From: a virus
Taxonomy: Duplodnaviria > Caudoviricetes
Direction: 5' to 3' (one strand)
DNA: 64,000 nt
Virus record (IMG/VR): IMGVR_UViG_3300031555_003522
Span: 1-64,000 of that record
The notes under the pieces are model-generated. The model did not search any database and was not told the origin of the DNA. It saw only the letters and a program-made list of their open reading frames with translations. This document shows positions 667 through 56,700 of this stretch, in pieces (the stretch's first letter is position 1; every line of letters starts with the position of its first letter). Both the position numbers and the translations under genes were made by a program.

Positions 667-3600
667 ATGAATTATTTTAATGAAAATGCATTAACTCAAG
701 AAATAGATTCTAAATTAAAGAAAAGGGGTATCAAAGCCACAACCGACAGTATAAAAGAACTTGATGGTCGTGGTGCTATAATCGATACCAAGCAGTATCA
801 AAAATTAGAAGATTCTTCTTTTATGAAATTATTAGCTTTAACTTGTAAAGAGGTTAGTAATTATTCCAAGAGAATCATCTATATACCTGTATCTAAATGG
901 TATAGAAAGGGTACTAATAGACTGATAGAGTCTAAGACACCATTAGGCACTATCTGCCGTTATATTAAATCTAATCCGGATGAATTTAAAAGGCAGTTCT
1001 CTAATATCGTATTTATTTTTTATAATGATAATAGAGAATCGTTTAGTTTATATGCAGATGATTATAAATCTTCTGAATTCAGAACTGTCGAATTCTTATT
1101 AAATACATTAGTTCAGCATTCTATTCCTCATTTTACTAATGTTTCTGGATTGAAGTCTCCTGTTAAGGATGTAGTATCTGATACATTTGAAAGTAAGAAA
1201 TCTGAAAGAGATGATAAGAAACAGGAACTGGTAGCAGCGATAGCTAATGCTGCAGAGGATGCGGAGAATGAGGATGAAGCATGGTCTGCTATAGAAGAAG
1301 ATGAATATATTAAACAGATTATTCTCGATCTCGAAGAAGAGGATGATGGTAAACCTCAGTTTAATAATGCACGTACTAGTCGTATAGCCAAACTTAATGA
1401 TGAATTCCTTGATAAAAAGCTTGGCGATACTAAAATAAGCGATATTGTATATAAAACTAGTGAAATTCCTATCCCCTCAAAGCACCTCAATATATCTTCT
1501 ATAAATGAAGAATGGGATGACATAAAGTTTATTAACTTTAATGCTGCTTATGATGCAAATAATGATATAATTAAAATTATCCATTCATTTGCTAATAAGT
1601 CATATCCTATCTCTGTTGTAGATATTAATATTGAGGATACATCTAATAATATGGATTATCTCTATACTTATACTGTAGTAACTGAAGATGGATATGGAAA
1701 GAGATCTACATTGGTATTCGATATACCTAAATTAATAAATCATAGATTTATGAGATTAAGAGGTAATGAGAAAGTTGTTTCTGGTCAGCTACTATTATTG
1801 CCTTGTCTTAAAACTGATGAGGACACTGTACAGTGTGTCAGTAACTATAACAAGATATTTATCAGACGTAAAGGATTAGAGGGAAGATCTTATCCAACTT
1901 CTGATAGATTGATTAAGGCTTTACGTAAGTATAATGGTTCTGATATAAAGATAGTGTTTGGCGATAATGGTGCTATCTGTTCTAAGCATGAGCTTCCTAC
2001 AGACTATATAGATGTGGCGAAGAATGTAATGAGAATAGAAACCGAAGAAGCAATATACTATTTTGATCAGGATATATATTACACTAAATTTGATGCAGAT
2101 AAGAAAAACGGTATTCCATATGCTATAAATAAAATTGATAGCTCTGTGAGATATTATAAAGATCAATCTGCTATGTTAAGCTATGTGATCGCTGATGAAA
2201 TATCCTCAATGTCGATAAAATTTGATGATTTATTTAAAGCTCAAAAATCCGCTACTAGATTAAATTATTCTGAAGCTAGCGTTATGGCTAATAGAATACC
2301 TCTGGTTGTTGTTATTGGGTATTCTCTTGGTATGGATGGAGTTATGAAACTTTGTGGCATTTCTGGAGAATATAGAAGTGATGATAAAAAGAGCTTCAAT
2401 CCTGATACCGAGGCTATTATAAGATTCTCAGATGGCTATATCAGATATCCAGTAAATTATGCTACATCTATGCTCTTAAATGGTCTTTCAGTTTGTCCTA
2501 CTGAGACATATTCTCTTGAAGATCTTAATAAGAGATCTATGTGGTTAGATTTCTTGGATGAATTTGGTGGTAGAATTCTATCTGACGGTCTTGATAACTT
2601 CGCAGATCTATTTATAGATCCGATTACTGCAGAAGTCTGTAGAGATTGTAGAATTCCTTCCAATTATTTCGATATGCTTATGTATGCTAATAATCTTTTA
2701 GCAGATAACAAGTATAATCGTCATACAGATATTTCCGGTAATAGATATAGAACAAGTGAAATTATTGCTGGTTATTTCTATAAGGCTATTACTAAAGCAT
2801 ATGCTGATTATAAATCTCAGGTTAAGCATGGAAGAAAAGTTGGTATTAGTATGAAGCGTAGTGCTGTTATTGATGGTATTATGTCTGATCCTATGTCTTC
2901 TGATCTTTCTATTCTTAATCCTTTGCTTGAGATAGAAGCAAATAACTCGGTTTCCTTTAAAGGTCTCTCTGGCATGAACTCTGATAGATCTTATAGTCTT
3001 GATAAGCGTACATATGATGATTCTATGATTAATAAGCTTGCTATGTCTACAGGTTTTGCTGCTAATGTTGGTATCAATAGACAGACTACTATTGATATGG
3101 ATGTTGCTGGCATACGTGGATATATAAAGCAGACCAATCCTGACGATATGTCCGTCTCTAAGACTCTGAGTATGAGTGAAGCAGTAACACCATTCGGAAC
3201 AAGCCATGACGATCCCTTCAGGTCCGCAATGACATTTATTCAGACATCCAAGCACTCTATGCGTACAGCTAAATCTATGCCTCTGTTAATTACTAATGGT
3301 GCAGATGAGGCTATGCCATATATATCTTCTGATACGTTTGCATTTAAGGCAAAAGAAAATGGAGAAGTATTGGAAGTTACTAAAGATTTTATGGTCATTC
3401 ATTATGATAATTCTGTATATACAGCAGCTATTGGTGGTAGTACAGGAATTACAAATGAATTAATAGATCTTAGAGAACAGGTTAAAAAGAATTCTGATGG
3501 CGGCTTCTATATTACTCTTAAGCTAGATACAGATCTTAAAGCTGGAGATAGGTTTAAGAAAGATGATATAGTAGCATATGATAAAACATCGTATTCTAAT

Positions 3601-41719: not shown

Positions 41720-41888
41720 AACAAAGACAAGACAGCTGTATTTCTACAGCTGTCTTGTATCTACAACAAAGAAAAAGGAGGTGTACATGAAAATGAACGA
41801 AAAGAAATATATTTTTTAGGAGGTATCAAAATGAAAAACAACAATCCCGCGAACCGGACTACCCATTACGGCAATTTGAGTAACCCTT
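41720..41888 (-). ncRNA. predicted late sRNA with two anti-SD/anti-AUG segments
   Basis: Minus-strand AACA-TATATG-TA (41888-41899), 5' hairpin, U-rich single-stranded core, 14-bp terminator hairpin 41727-41758. Confidence 0.55.
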
Positions 41889-41978
41889 ACATATATGTTA
41901 CTGAAAAGCCAGGTTTTTGGGAGTATTTTTTAACTACTACAACAGATTAATAAAATTCTACTACAGGAGGATGGTATA

Positions 41979-44201: not shown

Positions 44202-44524
44202 AATTTGTAGAATCGATAGCGTCTTTTTTAAAAGGACGTGTATCTATACAAGATCTTATGGACCGCCCTTTCAACGAGCTTCATGAACTCTATCGCATAG
44301 TGTATCTTCGTGCCGAAGCTCAAGCTAAGGCAGAGAAAGAACGACAAGAGAAAGAAGAAAAAGAAAAAGCAAATGGAAAGGGCGGTCCTAAGTATCCTCA
44401 AATAAACCGACAACCGCCAACTGATGTAAACAATCAACCTAACCAAAACCAAACTATATCCCCCTTAGCGGCTGAAGCTATGGAAGAAGCTTTTGAAGAT
44501 TTCGCGGAAGGAGGAATATTCTAA
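44156..44524 (+). CDS. C-terminal extension of the chaperone, probably reached by -1 frameshift (or separate ORF from 44258)
   Basis: -1 frame open from 44156; CTTTTTA at 44160-44166; no good RBS for ATG 44258. Confidence 0.45.
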   Translation, partial: NAFYTASVSSYRQYVEFVESIASFLKGRVSIQDLMDRPFNELHELYRIVYLRAEAQAKAEKERQEKEEKEKANGKGGPKYPQINRQPPTDVNNQPNQNQTISPLAAEAMEEAFEDFAEGGIF

Positions 44525-44528
44525 TACT

Positions 44529-44831
44529 ATGGGAACCACTAAAGACTTTGTCCATAATCTAAATTCAGATAATATCCCCTACATAGTAACTAATTATTTT
44601 GATGAAATAATGGTTTTATACAACCTGGTTGGCAGTAGGCAGGATATTGAAATCTGTACAGATAGTTCAAATGATACTGTAAAATTTATACTTTTGATGG
44701 ATTGTGAAGAAAGTGCAACAGAGCTATATAATAGCTTAAACAATATGGAGTTCTCTGTATACAGTGACCGTTTCATTATTGGTATGACTCTTTCCGGATC
44801 TTCCATTACTACAGTAATTACAAAGATATAA
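44529..44831 (+). CDS. hypothetical protein
   Basis: AGGAGG RBS, ATG 44529. Confidence 0.65.
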   Translation: MGTTKDFVHNLNSDNIPYIVTNYFDEIMVLYNLVGSRQDIEICTDSSNDTVKFILLMDCEESATELYNSLNNMEFSVYSDRFIIGMTLSGSSITTVITKI

Positions 44832-44832
44832 T

Positions 44833-44864
44833 AAAAAGGTAGGAATTTAATTCCTACCTTTTTA
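44833..44864 (+). terminator. intrinsic terminator
   Basis: AAAAAGGTAGGAA / TTCCTACCTTTTT. Confidence 0.8.
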
Positions 44865-44888
44865 TTATTAATTAATAAACATATATTT

Positions 44889-45188
44889 GAAGGTATTATA
44901 TTTCAATTGGAAATATCTATATCTTCAAAATAAACGCCTCATCTATAAAGGTAGGTGATTGAGGCGATAAATACGAGCAAATCCTACCAGGTTGATTATA
45001 AGTCATTATGGGGACTAGTGACATCAACCAGTTACCTGCGCAGGTACTAATAGTTCCCAAAAGTGACGTAGCAATTAGTAGTTGTAGAGGTGATTGACTG
45101 TATTCCTCGTAATCGCTACTATGGGATGTCGAAAAGTCAATAAAGAAGTAGATGGAGAGTGTACAACACTCTCCACTATTTTTTTTTT
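44889..45188 (+). ncRNA. predicted structured ncRNA: 5' hairpin plus three tandem pseudoknots
   Basis: AACA-TATATT-TG promoter 44878-44889; many complementary segments; GGAGAGTGT/ACACTCTCC terminator with long T run; no RBS-led ORF. Confidence 0.65.
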
Positions 45189-45244
45189 GTTTTTCCTTTT
45201 ATTGTCCACTTAATTCACATATTAATAAAAGAGGTGATGCTTAT

Positions 45245-46918
45245 ATGCCAGATTTAATAAGGGGTGATCACCTTAGAGTGAGTCTTATAGACCCCGAAAG
45301 ACTGGTAAAAGTCAATGATCTCAAAGAGATTACCAATCCCATTTCATTCGTTCGAAATTCAGTTCCTACCTCTGATGGATTATTATCTAATGAAATATTT
45401 GGAATTACCAAATATGATCGCGCTAATACATTTGCATACATCGATCTTCATGAGGAGTTTTTAAACCCTCTAATTTATAAGATGTGGTGCAAAGTTGATT
45501 CTAATGTTAAAGCATGCGTTCATGGTATAAAATATTTCAAGATAAATGATAAGGGTGAACTTGAAGAAGATCCGGAAAATGGTGATAATGGTATTAGGTT
45601 TCTTAGAGACAATATTAAGAAAATTAAGATTAAGCGTACTGGATCTAAACAAAGAGACATGCGTGTAGACTTTATAGAGAGCTATATCGGTAAGCCTGAA
45701 ATGTTTATTAAGAAATATATAGTATGCCCAGCATTCTATAGAGACGTTAATAACGATAAAGGCAAAGTATCTTTAGGAGCAATCAATGAATTGTATAGGT
45801 CTTTGTTGATCTCTGTTAGAGCTCTTAGAGAGTCCTCCGAATATGGTTTAAATCTAACTTCTGCTACTCGTGGTCGTATACAGGAAACTCTTGTTCAAAT
45901 ATACGACTGGTTTGGATCTGGTACTACTATAAATGGCGAGAAAACTAGCAATCTTATTCCTGGCAAATTTGGTATTATTAGACAGGGTGTTATGTCCAAA
46001 ACAACAGACTATGCTACTCGTCTAGTTCTATCGGCTCCAGAACTCAAGGTTGAACGGTTAGAGGATGTAGAAGCAGATCTCGATTATTCTGTACTTCCGT
46101 TAGCATCTGCTTGTGCAAACTTCCTTCCGTTCATAGTATATCATGTGAGAAGAATGTTTGAAAATGAGTTCTCTGGAGATGCGGTTATACCCTATATAAA
46201 TAAAGATAAGAGTATAACCTATTTACATCCGAAAGATTATCAAGTAGAATTTTCTGATGAAAGAATTAAGAAAGAAATAGATAGATTTTTGACAGGTTTC
46301 TCAAATAGATTTATTCCTTTAGAAGTTCCTACAGTAGAAGGTATTACTGTACGCTATAGATTTAAAGGATATAATATGACTGCTGAAGAGTATGCAAAAT
46401 CTGATATAGGTAAGATGCCTATAATGGAACGAGACTTAACTTGGTGTGATATACTCTATCAAGCAGCAGTAGAAGCTACAAAAGATAAACATATACTGAT
46501 TACCAGGTATCCTATAGACACTTATTTTAATCAGTTTCCAACCAAGATTAAAATAGCTTCTACCACAAGAACTGAACCTATGGTTGTAGGTAGTAAATTC
46601 TATAAAAATTATCCCTATATTCGTCAAGAAGATATTGGTACTAATACTTCTAATAAATTTATTGATACTTTGAATATTAGTAATCTATATCTAGATGGAA
46701 TAGGTGGAGATTATGATGGTGACCAGGTAACCGTAAAGGGAGCCTTTACAGAAGAGACAAATGCAGAGCTTGCTGAACAGCTTAAATCTAAAGCTCACTA
46801 CTTTAATCTTGGTGGTAAGGGTGTTAGAACTTCTGATAAAGAAGCTATTCAGAGCTTATATAGTTTGACATTGTGTCTAGATGCGGATAAAGAAAAAATC
46901 TCTGCACCTGTTTTCTAA
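45245..46918 (+). CDS. rpoC: phage RNA polymerase beta'-like N-terminal subunit with catalytic motif (virion-RNAP type)
   Basis: DGLLSNEIFG, PGKFGIIR, TRYP, GGDYDGD; start ATG 45245 after GAGGTG. Confidence 0.85.
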   Translation: MPDLIRGDHLRVSLIDPERLVKVNDLKEITNPISFVRNSVPTSDGLLSNEIFGITKYDRANTFAYIDLHEEFLNPLIYKMWCKVDSNVKACVHGIKYFKINDKGELEEDPENGDNGIRFLRDNIKKIKIKRTGSKQRDMRVDFIESYIGKPEMFIKKYIVCPAFYRDVNNDKGKVSLGAINELYRSLLISVRALRESSEYGLNLTSATRGRIQETLVQIYDWFGSGTTINGEKTSNLIPGKFGIIRQGVMSKTTDYATRLVLSAPELKVERLEDVEADLDYSVLPLASACANFLPFIVYHVRRMFENEFSGDAVIPYINKDKSITYLHPKDYQVEFSDERIKKEIDRFLTGFSNRFIPLEVPTVEGITVRYRFKGYNMTAEEYAKSDIGKMPIMERDLTWCDILYQAAVEATKDKHILITRYPIDTYFNQFPTKIKIASTTRTEPMVVGSKFYKNYPYIRQEDIGTNTSNKFIDTLNISNLYLDGIGGDYDGDQVTVKGAFTEETNAELAEQLKSKAHYFNLGGKGVRTSDKEAIQSLYSLTLCLDADKEKISAPVF

Positions 46919-53717: not shown

Positions 53718-56700
53718 ATGGGCCAACAAAAGGAATTAATGGAGGCTATGGAGTTCTTTGATCCCATACCATTTCAATATGTGGATGAATGGACACCTGG
53801 TCCGGACGATGAAGTCTTTAAAACTACTCGAGGCGCAATAATGTTAGATGTATCTGGTTTCTATGGGATGGAACCAAACCCACAGCTAGATGCATTTGTA
53901 TTGAGTGCTAAGAGGTCTTATAATAATCCTGATATGAGGACCCATACGTGCCATTACCTGAACTATTTTGAAAAATTCTATGATACTGATCACGAATTAC
54001 CAATGATTTATTGTAGATTAAAGTATCTCATTGATTGTGAACCTGCTTATAGTAGAGAGGCATTTATTTACGATCTTTATCGTTATATTATGCATGGATC
54101 TATCTATACAAAGGTTAGCTATATGAATGATGCTAACTACAGTCTATCATTAACCTATAAAAACGTGAAGAATCCTAATCTTCAATATAGTGATTGAGAA
54201 CAGTCACCTCGATATAGAAATATAGCGAGTAAAACTCCTCTAATTGCTGGAAACTCGTAAAGCTCATCTGCTACGGATATGGGAAACGAAAAAGGGAGTA
54301 CCTATCCTACAGAGACGAAAGTCAGAAACAAGTGATGAGATGATCTATGAGGAAACTCTAAGGGTTTAGCCATCAATCGACAACCAGCAGCCAAGCAAAT
54401 TAAGCTACGCAAACTAGCTTCGGATTATTTTAAACATATATTCGCCGGTATGATGGAATTGGTAAGACATAAGAGACTTAAAATCTCTCGGATTAAGTTC
54501 CGTACCGGTTCGAGTCCGGTTACCGGCACCAACCTATTTATAGATTCTGTGGTTATGAATCTATACCAAAATATAATCCACATACTTAACCAGCGTAGCC
54601 AAGTTGAAGGTTCAACGACTATCGAAAGGATAGTGCGACATGCTTGCAACGCATGTGCATGAATAACCGAGTAGAGTAGGGCTCGAGCGAGCTCGAAATG
54701 GGGAGCACCTTAGCGGATAAGTGCCGAAGGTGAAGATATAGTCTGGACTATGGGTAATGCCTATAGAAGTTCATTAAAGAACTGCGCACCAAAAGCGACG
54801 TGCGTGAACATCTCGAGGCATGGACGGATAATGATGAAAGTATCAGTCCTCATGAATATAATTATCCCTCTTATGTGTCATTTTATGTATGCGCGTAAGA
54901 TTGATAATACAACTGAGTTTATTCTCGCTGTCTACGACGTACTTATTGATCAGTATGACGTAGATATATACAATAAGCTGTACGAAACGGCTATCTCTAA
55001 TGTCTTACGTACAGCAAAAAGAAATCAAGCAATCTGGAATATGCAAGATATTCGTGGTATCAATACTAGTATCCACAGTCTACAGTCAGTACAGAATGTC
55101 TTGATAAATATAATGCCTTAACCAAACTAGGGCCATATGATAGCAATATCATATAGCAAACTCCTTTAATTGCTGGGAACTCTCACTGAGACAATCAGCA
55201 GCGAAGCCTCTATATGGGGAACGTTCAACGACTATCGAAAGGATAATGTAAGAGAAATACTTACATGAATAACCGAGTAGAGTAGGATTTATGTCCGAAA
55301 TGGGGAGCATCTTAAATATGGTAATAGTATTTGAGATGAAGATATAGTCTACTCCTTGCAGCGATGTAAGGTATACAGGAAATATAGGTACGATGGAAAT
55401 TTGTGACAAAGTTTCCTCATGTGGGAACACATGATCCAACAAGCTCTCTAATTGCTGGGAACTCTCACTGAGACAATCAGCAGCGAAGCCTCTATATGAG
55501 GAACGTTCAACGACTAGTCGAAAGACGTAGGTTCAAGCGAACCGAAATGGGAGCCACCCCAATGCTTAATAAATAAGTAATGGGTGAAGATATAGTCTGG
55601 TCTGCATGGCAACATGCAGTAGTTCATAAGAGAACAGTGTAAGATTAGCGATCTTACACGAACAACCGCTTGTCCATCTCAACTACAAGTCAATTTTACG
55701 AAATACTGGATTTCAGGTTCTGGATAATCATTTAAATGTCCACATACATGGTAACATGTATAGTAAAACTTCTTTAATTGCTGGAAGGCTAAACTTGATT
55801 AAGCAAGCATGCTAATCAGCAGCCAAGATGTTAATTTAATGATTCGGAGAGTATCTAAAATGATGACTTATGATTTTTCCAATTATTCTTATAATGGACT
55901 TCAAGTCCCTATAGAATTTTGGAAACCCATTACAGAAGAAATGGTTCCAAATGTGAAACCAATATACTTTGTAAGTAATATAGGAAATATTTATAATTCT
56001 GAGAATAATAAATATTCTATAATTACACTAAAAGCTGGTAGATATGTACAGGTTAGTCTTCGTACTAAAGATGGAGGACAAATCTGTATTCATATTCATA
56101 GATTAGTGGCCATGGCATTTCATGGAATGCCACCATCTAAAGACCATGAAGTAGATCATGTAAATTGCGATAAAACCTGTAATTTTGAGGGTAATCTTGA
56201 ATGGGTAACCCCAAAAGAAAATATAAATAGAGCTTGCATAAATAATTTGATTAGGATGGGTGAAGATAATTATAGAGCTATCTTAACCAATGATGATGTA
56301 ACTCATTTATGTGAATTACTAATGCAATCCATTCCTATCTCTAAAATATGTACTATGATGGAAGAGTATATCTATCCTAGAGTATATAGCAGCGGATTTA
56401 AAGGCTTAATAGGTCATATATTATGTGGAGATGTATGGAAAGAAATCGCAAGTCAATACAATTTTCCAGATTACGGTAGATTAAATTTTACCGATGATCA
56501 AGTTCGTATAATATGCGAATGCCTGAGCAGACAGGAACGATATATAGACATTCTTGATAAACTCGGTATGAGCAACTGTACAGAGCAGGAATTGAAGAGA
56601 CTAAAAGAGACTATATATAAGATCAAAGCAGGTAAGTCTTATGCTAATATTTCTTGTAATTACAATATTACAAGAAATAAGAGTTATATACTTACAAATA

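Follow-up and report, generated by a model that had tools for sequence, protein, structure and literature searches.

What occupies the gap in front of the RNA polymerase gene of a giant phage when no protein-coding gene stands there? We address this question for a 64,000-nucleotide stretch of viral DNA (Caudoviricetes), hereafter the window, which forms positions 1 to 64,000 of the IMG/VR record IMGVR_UViG_3300031555_003522 (159.8 kb, completeness estimate 65%). In it, a 253-bp cassette lies upstream of a beta'-like gene for a multisubunit RNA polymerase (45245-46918, + strand; phrog_2986, E 1.9e-79). The cassette is a genuine, discrete and non-coding unit that is probably transcribed, and the reading that we favour, tentatively, is that of a stable, stand-alone late RNA that would work as a trans-acting decoy and tie up an RNA-binding partner. 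The best deposited relatives of the beta' protein come from AR9/PBS1-type jumbo phages of Firmicutes (31-34% identity by tblastn to AR9, PBS1 and LPJP1), which include the Listeria phage LPJP1 and Staphylococcus and Bacillus phages. Because of these relatives, we place the source, by its sequence, among the AR9-like giant phages, as a distant and uncultured member. Related phage loci and records that were compared are labeled L002, L016, and so on.

The cassette and its predicted transcription unit

The limits of the cassette are set by a close relative, L016, whose beta' is 98% identical. DNA homology to this relative (blastn) ends at 44878 and restarts at 45132, so the segment in between stands out as a discrete cassette. 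A preliminary description, made from the letters of the window alone, had placed the region between two terminators, and a terminator scan bears this out, with hairpins at 44832-44866 (T1, after a conserved 100-aa gene at 44529-44831) and at 45153-45175, the latter followed by a T-run (T2). The downstream terminator is present as described but is not private to the RNA, since it is conserved in L016 behind a two-gene cargo and is thus common to the site whatever the cargo.

The promoter that had been proposed for the region, AACA-TATATT-TG with a start at G44889, is also present, and it fits the late promoter consensus of phage AR9, AACA-(6N)-TA/G, in which the last base is the start site (PMC5312081). 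Its TG ending is the rarer variant of the motif. In the window, the late motif occurs 60 times, and 18 of these 60 occurrences are intergenic, with intergenic DNA making up 11% of the sequence; 13 of the motifs stand 13-63 nt upstream of window genes, typically as AACATAnnAnTAAA. The locus thereby shows what marks an AR9-type late unit, namely, AACA-(6N)-T(A/G) just before the predicted start, in a form that is enriched upstream of the genes of the window. The promoter match, the motif upstream of 13 genes and the cassette boundaries against L016 support the earlier proposal of a stand-alone late transcription unit, whose predicted transcript, from G44889 to T2, would measure ~297 nt. Late non-coding and antisense transcripts have also been reported for AR9 (PMC5312081).

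The cassette holds no credible open reading frame (ORF). Its frames span only 31-47 codons and lack proper start contexts, and neither a Pfam match nor any similarity to the cargo proteins of relatives was found for them; a decayed protein cargo was ruled out on the latter two grounds. Three independent metagenome contigs (L019, L020 and L021), each drawn from another sample, carry the RNA at 100% identity between the same flanking proteins, and the cassette is absent from all the relatives examined. Furthermore, a distant-mode blastn search with 44500-45600 against 50,697 phage records gave no match, and no paralogue was found in the phage's own 159.8-kb record. Searches by blastn, by nhmmer and with two single-sequence covariance models of the RNA (R1 and R2) against 55 related IMG/VR jumbo-phage records and nine Logan/NCBI loci returned nothing below E ~0.02 per genome, and their best match falls in coding DNA. 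Four exact or gapped patterns matched, among viral contigs, only a tandem-repeat protein gene and a GC-rich chance sequence, while two patterns run against metagenome contigs and two against genome contigs gave 0 matches. The collection of homologues from relatives that the preliminary description had envisaged thus yielded only the 100%-identical copies, so that it showed no helices kept by compensatory changes and allowed no covariation test of the pseudoknots discussed below.

The Rfam comparison proposed at the same time gave no known family: in 44700-45350, no model matched at the gathering threshold and none credibly up to E 10, the best sub-threshold matches (24 bits or less) being the terminator hairpins. 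Riboswitches and T-boxes, a group I intron remnant and ribozymes, as well as 6S and HEARO/omega RNA, were set aside for lack of a gathering-level match over the same interval. The RNA is an orphan without comparative support, in a genomic context that is suggestive.

Predicted fold of the RNA

The nested folding model contains only four robust elements, the 5'-terminal hairpin, hairpin A, hairpin B and the terminator (Table 1), and in this model the transcript is a structured RNA with several solid hairpins. Compared with shuffled sequences, the whole transcript scores z = -6.3 on the + strand and -4.2 on the - strand, and the + strand value is driven mostly by the 5' hairpin and the terminator.

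Table 1. Features of the cassette and its borders in window coordinates
Feature	Position	Strand	Remarks
Terminator T1	44832-44866	+	palindromic, A/T-flanked hairpin; stems AAAAAGGTAGGAATT / AATTCCTACCTTTTT
Late-promoter motif AACA-TATATT-TG	44878-44889	+	AACATATATTTG; predicted +1 = G44889
Cargo cassette, 253 bp	44879-45131	+	boundaries by blastn against L016
5'-terminal hairpin	44889-44926	+	8 bp + 7 bp, begins at +1; pair probability 0.99 and 0.985; in the minimum free energy fold
Hairpin A, CGCCTCA/TGAGGCG	44935-44966	+	pair probability 0.80
Ribosome-binding-site-like ATAAAGGTAGGTGATT	44945-44960	+	loop of hairpin A; includes first 10-mer copy
Candidate pseudoknot pairing A, GGTAGG/CCTACC	44950-55 / 44983-88	+	p = 0.058 against shuffled flank
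10-mer AGGTGATTGA, first copy	44953-44962	+	exact repeat
Hairpin B, GGTTGAT/ATCAACC + GTCATTA/TAGTGAC	44990-45029	+	7-nt loop TGGGGAC; pair probability 0.92 and 0.76
Candidate pseudoknot pairing B, TGGGGAC/GTTCCCA	45009-15 / 45053-59	+	p = 0.011 against shuffled flank
3' domain	45031-45141	+	two competing folds: that of the preliminary description and a nested alternative
10-mer AGGTGATTGA, second copy	45088-45097	+	exact repeat
Terminator T2	45153-45188	+	10-bp stem, ACA loop, T10; pair probability 0.98

The preliminary description had gone further and proposed a row of three consecutive pseudoknots. Every complementary segment that it listed is present, with small corrections: TAGTAG lies at 45076-81 rather than 45077-82, the loop pairing of the second pseudoknot includes one G-U pair, and the TACCTG/CAGGTA hairpin would have a 2-nt loop if paired in full, which limits it to 5 bp or fewer around a GCGC loop. 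Combined, the three loop-to-3'-flank pairings modestly exceed those of shuffled flanks (Fisher 0.0026, a post hoc value because the pairings had been chosen beforehand by the preliminary description), and upstream flanks used as controls gave no signal. A looser count of pseudoknot motifs was not significant (4 versus 1.7 +/- 1.4). In the minimum free energy (MFE) fold, hairpin A is extended at the expense of pairing A, and for steric reasons not all seven loop bases of pairing B are likely to pair at once.

For the 3' domain, the two competing folds differ strongly. The originally proposed fold combines a mini-hairpin (45033-46), helices 45065-69/45126-30, 45076-81/45116-21 and 45087-90/45105-08, and the loop pairing 45093-99/45135-41 (p = 0.069 against shuffled flank). 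In an equally stable nested alternative, AGGUGAU (45088-94) and GUUACCU (45031-37) pair within a long hairpin that spans 45031-45094, and 45093-99/45135-41 closes a second hairpin, so that AUUGACU/AGUCAAU becomes an ordinary nested helix with a probability of 0.52 in the nested ensemble. In the same ensemble, the mini-hairpin and the three-helix stack of the third pseudoknot have a pair probability of ~0. Moreover, L016 shares the DNA that carries AAAAGTCA, the 3' strand of the third pseudoknot, but not the rest of the domain. Thus, what holds of the original model is the complementarity, along with several solid hairpins; a row of three consecutive pseudoknots is plausible rather than proven, and we doubt the third.

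As a separate observation, CTATATCTTCA (44917-44927), on the 3' strand of the 5' hairpin, is the exact complement of an 11-nt word at 54731-41, 55337-47 and 55585-95. This word sits near the 3' end of three group I introns, of which the window carries several, along with one tRNA (tRNA-Leu at 54444, ARAGORN); the match is within chance expectation for 11-mers, and its segment in the RNA is buried in a stem.

The variable slot and candidate functions

The cassette fills a slot whose surroundings are widely shared. The order of a 607-aa gene, an 88-aa gene, the 100-aa gene and beta' is conserved across a very large family, with more than 2,000 beta' homologues at E < 1e-30. The slot itself varies. 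It is empty, at ~75-80 nt, in L002, L005, L007, L017, L018, L136, L139, L140 and L141, whereas L004 and L054 hold an ORF resembling Tad2 (PF11195, E 2e-4, below the Pfam threshold), L003 an ORF 33% identical to that one, and L137 an ORF assigned to PF11195 by precomputed annotation; the Pfam name of this family is "Thoeris anti-defense 2-like." A coiled-coil ORF is found in L121, zinc-finger ORFs in L057 and L068, and a small minus-strand ORF in L006. In L061, a radical SAM protein lies between the 88-aa-like and 100-aa-like genes and not in the gap before beta'. By its contents, the slot behaves as an accessory hot spot rich in counter-defense-type cargo, and for the RNA this context amounts to guilt by position.

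Three further loci deserve a description of their own. In L142 (1-1500; Logan SRR33574444, beta' 79% identical), six ORFs of 71-86 aa stand in a row directly upstream of beta', two of them PF11195 Tad2-like, and the row looks like a compact anti-defense island. L097, a 313-kb relative with terminal repeats, carries at 1422-1853 (- strand) an ORF with a NADAR domain (PF08719, E 8e-27) and two small minus-strand ORFs of no named family. NADAR enzymes reverse DarT-type ADP-ribosylation. In L016 (741-1281), a 106-aa ORF followed by a 69-aa helix-turn-helix (HTH_3) protein takes the place of the RNA. A small protein of unknown kind followed by a small helix-turn-helix protein is the usual arrangement of acr-aca pairs, which this pair resembles.

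How might an RNA work in such a place? In the reading that we tentatively prefer, the non-virion RNA polymerase of the phage would transcribe the cassette late, from G44889 to the shared terminator, and the hairpin that begins at +1, a likely stabilizer of the 5' end, would, together with the terminator hairpin, be expected to make the product long-lived. The body, a succession of stable hairpins that might also form pseudoknots, would present two exact copies of AGGUGAUUGA, a sequence resembling the phage's own beta' ribosome-binding sites. Such an RNA might tie up an RNA-binding partner in trans, either a host defense protein, which would fit the slot cargo of relatives, or a factor that recognizes the ribosome-binding sites of the phage. 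Of this scheme, the limits of the cassette, the promoter match, the absence of a credible ORF, the solid hairpins and the variability of the slot are observed, and we infer the transcription, the stability of the RNA, the pseudoknots, the action in trans and the partner.

The likeness to ribosome-binding sites is close at both places. The 10-mer AGGTGATTGA occurs in two exact copies in the window, both inside this RNA. Around the first copy, the motif in the loop of hairpin A matches the beta' ribosome-binding site of L114 at all 16 nt; in L114, an AACA late promoter stands just upstream of that site, and the longer segment 44931-44962 aligns into this promoter and ribosome-binding site. Overlapping the second copy, AGAGGTGAT (45086-94) is identical over 9 nt to the beta' Shine-Dalgarno sequence of this phage at 45230-38. 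These facts allow two readings, since the motifs may be presented as mimics of ribosome-binding sites or may be left from the assembly of the RNA out of duplicated terminator, promoter and ribosome-binding-site modules.

It is important to consider what weighs against a decoy acting in trans. No diverged homologue was found in the searches described above, so there is no signal of covariation or purifying selection, and the element may have arisen very recently. In all the fold models, base pairs engage the two ribosome-binding-site-like motifs, whose presence may simply reflect that the element arose when the neighboring promoter and ribosome-binding-site module was duplicated. The core of the RNA (44930-45145) exceeds its shuffled versions in stability by only a modest margin (z = -2.65), and 2 of the 200 did equally well. 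The pseudoknot model is not favored because its energies, -69.7 kcal/mol for the originally listed nested helices plus about -23 for the three loop pairings, are no better than the nested MFE of -94.9 kcal/mol once a pseudoknot penalty is applied. No CRISPR-repeat, tracrRNA (trans-activating CRISPR RNA), ToxI or tRNA model of Rfam matches at E up to 10, and a scan for CRISPR-array patterns was empty. Lastly, position is weak evidence, because the slot also holds cargo without a defense link, such as the radical SAM and zinc-finger ORFs.

Nearly as likely as the trans-acting decoy, and likewise tentative, is that the RNA is a young neutral by-product of local duplication and rearrangement of terminator, late-promoter and ribosome-binding-site modules, perhaps transcribed but with no selected function. 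The pieces that may have been borrowed can be pointed to one by one. The halves of T1, TAAAAAGGTAGG and AATTCCTACC, recur around hairpin A with the stem words GGTAGG and CCTACC, so that the hairpin A words TAxAAAGGTAGG and AAxTCCTACC copy the two halves of the terminator; AATAAA(A/G)A(G/A)GTAG precedes both terminators; and the Shine-Dalgarno identity and the alignment with L114 described above fit the same origin. Direct repeats of at least 9 nt number 3 in the region against 0.7 expected (p 0.04). The confinement of the RNA to one narrow lineage, which L016 with its 98% identical beta' does not share, and the empty homologue searches, with no evidence of selection, also agree with it. On the other hand, the repeat matches are short and individually weak, and self-alignment yields only the 10-mer (p 0.04), on which ground an internal duplication of whole modules was rejected. 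Furthermore, nothing in the flanking modules corresponds to the two strongest hairpins, the 15-bp hairpin from +1 and the 14-bp hairpin B, which speaks against pure duplication, and the sequence of promoter, 5'-terminal hairpin and terminator is the layout of a working small-RNA gene.

Two other functions in trans appear unlikely to us. One is a narrower version of the counter-defense idea, in which the RNA alone, stable and pseudoknotted, would be the cargo that replaces protein sponges such as Tad2, its aptamer-like modules sequestering a host immune protein or an immune signaling nucleotide; if this were true, such cargo would form a class of anti-defense RNA modeled on neither CRISPR repeats nor antitoxins. 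The other is a base-pairing regulator or sponge of translation, which would tune late translation as its motifs bind the 3' end of 16S rRNA or an anti-ribosome-binding-site RNA, one candidate being located at 41720-41899. The segments have identical counterparts in real beta' ribosome-binding sites, their duplexes with a generic Firmicute 16S 3' end reach -16.5 (first motif) and -14.1 kcal/mol (second), and the candidate partner, 3 kb away, contains ACCUCCU twice. However, both motifs are engaged in base pairs whichever fold is predicted, strong Shine-Dalgarno-like words are no rarity here (128 kb hold 25 clusters away from start sites), the pairing with the candidate RNA would be just 5+5 bp plus a mismatch, and the candidate locus could equally encode small + strand proteins. 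In that part of the window (41760-41950, + strand), we note two strong ribosome-binding sites, each followed by an ATG, with short frames of 10 and 39 codons.

Less probable still is a guide-RNA mimic, like Racr, a viral single-guide RNA (sgRNA) or a tracrRNA, that would load into a host CRISPR effector, with the 5' hairpin in the part of the repeat:anti-repeat duplex. The 5' hairpin, with its bulge and the AAAAUAA that follows, may resemble the lower stem of an sgRNA, and the acr-aca-like pair (a 106-aa ORF and a helix-turn-helix protein) in the slot of L016 is in keeping with the idea. RNAs of this kind do exist in phage anti-defense loci and end in intrinsic terminators (PMC10651486; bioRxiv 10.64898/2026.06.01.729453). 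Nevertheless, the CRISPR-DR and tracrRNA models of Rfam do not match, as stated above, with G44889 as +1 the hairpin would have no guide segment before it, the length of the RNA is three times that of the 89-nt viral sgRNA, and no CRISPR-like array with TACCTGCGCAGGTA, the core of the mini-hairpin, was found in 185,579 species genomes.

We consider it very improbable that the RNA is a cis-acting leader or attenuator of beta', although Firmicute riboswitches and attenuators classically have this layout, in which a long structured RNA runs into a terminator just before a gene. In relatives with an empty slot, beta' is kept, and the same promoter-like element and ribosome-binding site stand between the terminator and the gene, which argues against such a role; T2 also serves protein-coding cargo in L016, no riboswitch or T-box model matches, and no obvious antiterminator alternative was seen. 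The conserved element before beta' reads TTCACATA...AGAGGTGATG in L002, L003 and L004. In the form TTCACATAnTATTAA...AGAGGTGATG, it is located at 45200-45244 of the window, L002:3960-4000, L003:3960-4012 and L004:3968-4002. Its CACA-N6-TA is one base off the late consensus, so beta' may have a late-like promoter of its own. The beta' gene is uninterrupted in this phage (45245-46918). In the close relatives L002 (5434-6365), L003, L004 and L016, one or two insertions of ~0.55-1.2 kb, presumably group I introns, split it after residue 480 and, in L004, after residue 424 as well.

A micro-protein, for example from the 27-31-codon frame at 44955-45050 behind the first ribosome-binding-site-like motif, is hardly credible: a strong Shine-Dalgarno-like sequence does precede a 31-codon open frame, with a second one 135 nt downstream, but the only canonical starts (GTG 44955, TTG 44959 and TTG 45094) fall within the Shine-Dalgarno core or follow it at a distance of 0-3 nt, the frame crosses the most stable hairpin, and neither Pfam nor the cargo proteins offered a match.

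Significance and likeness to known systems

The known phage RNA decoys, Racr, viral sgRNAs and pseudo-ToxI, were all discovered through their copying of a host RNA. If the trans-acting decoy proves true, an RNA cargo without a recognizable template, in a slot that elsewhere holds Tad2-like and NADAR proteins, would suggest that anti-defense islands also hide RNA genes missed by protein-centered searches. If the RNA is instead a neutral by-product, it would show on a small scale how duplicated promoter, ribosome-binding-site and terminator modules can give rise to an RNA gene that is structured and transcribed. Regardless of the RNA, the slot may be useful in itself, as a terminator-bounded site between the 100-aa gene and beta' across a large family of uncultured AR9-like jumbo phages and a practical place to seek new counter-defense genes.

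Among described systems, the late units of AR9 share with this RNA the promoter form AACA-(6N)-T(A/G) and the start at its last base, whereas no comparable structured stand-alone RNA is described in the AR9 study (PMC5312081), and AR9, PBS1 and other deposited phages have no DNA similarity to the region. Translational operator pseudoknots, such as those of Escherichia coli rpsO/S15 and of the alpha operon (S4), likewise bury a Shine-Dalgarno-like sequence, as hairpin A and the 3' domain appear to do. However, in this RNA no ORF follows the motif and a terminator ends the unit. The rpsO/S15 and alpha-operon/S4 operators are cis elements directly before the ORF that they regulate.

The preliminary description had seen a resemblance to the pseudoknot domain of transfer-messenger RNA (tmRNA), whose H5 and PK2-PK4 form a row of hairpin-type pseudoknots similar in size to those proposed here, if the proposed pairings form. 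The resemblance did not hold up as kinship, and tmRNA was ruled out: unlike tmRNA, this RNA has neither a tRNA-like domain nor a tag reading frame, ARAGORN finds only the tRNA-Leu mentioned above, and no Rfam tmRNA model matches at gathering or at E <= 10. The other resemblance that had been raised, to type III antitoxins, failed in the same way. ToxI, CptI and TenpI are pseudoknot-forming RNAs that neutralize a protein, and a phage mimic of one of them, pseudo-ToxI, is a known counter-defense (PMC3401426, PMC3475682). Type III antitoxins need tandem direct repeats of 31-62 nt in 1.9-5.6 copies (PMC3401426); in contrast, the three modules of this RNA are unrelated in sequence, no tandem array reaches a Tandem Repeats Finder (TRF) score of 30, with only dispersed 9-13-nt repeats present, and no gene for a ToxN/CptN/TenpN-type endoribonuclease flanks the RNA, the neighboring genes having no Pfam match. 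Because the defining features were looked for and not found, we do not count the RNA as a tmRNA, a type III antitoxin or a member of any Rfam family.

The closest comparison is with the RNA decoys reported from phage anti-defense loci, Racr (PMC10651486), pseudo-ToxI (PMC3475682) and the viral sgRNAs, which are 89 nt long, adjoin acr genes and end in a terminator (bioRxiv 10.64898/2026.06.01.729453). Racr and the viral sgRNAs are, in layout, like the RNA described here: a small phage gene for a non-coding RNA, which has a promoter of its own, ends in an intrinsic terminator, lies among anti-defense cargo and is presumed to yield a decoy (PMC10651486; bioRxiv 10.64898/2026.06.01.729453). They differ in being recognizable copies of a host CRISPR repeat or tracrRNA of 30-90 nt, whereas this RNA is predicted at ~297 nt and matches no repeat or tracrRNA model. 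Thus, by its proposed way of working, its nearest kind is that of the phage RNA decoys, and, although it has no recognizable host template, it is possibly a variant of that kind, rather than a member.

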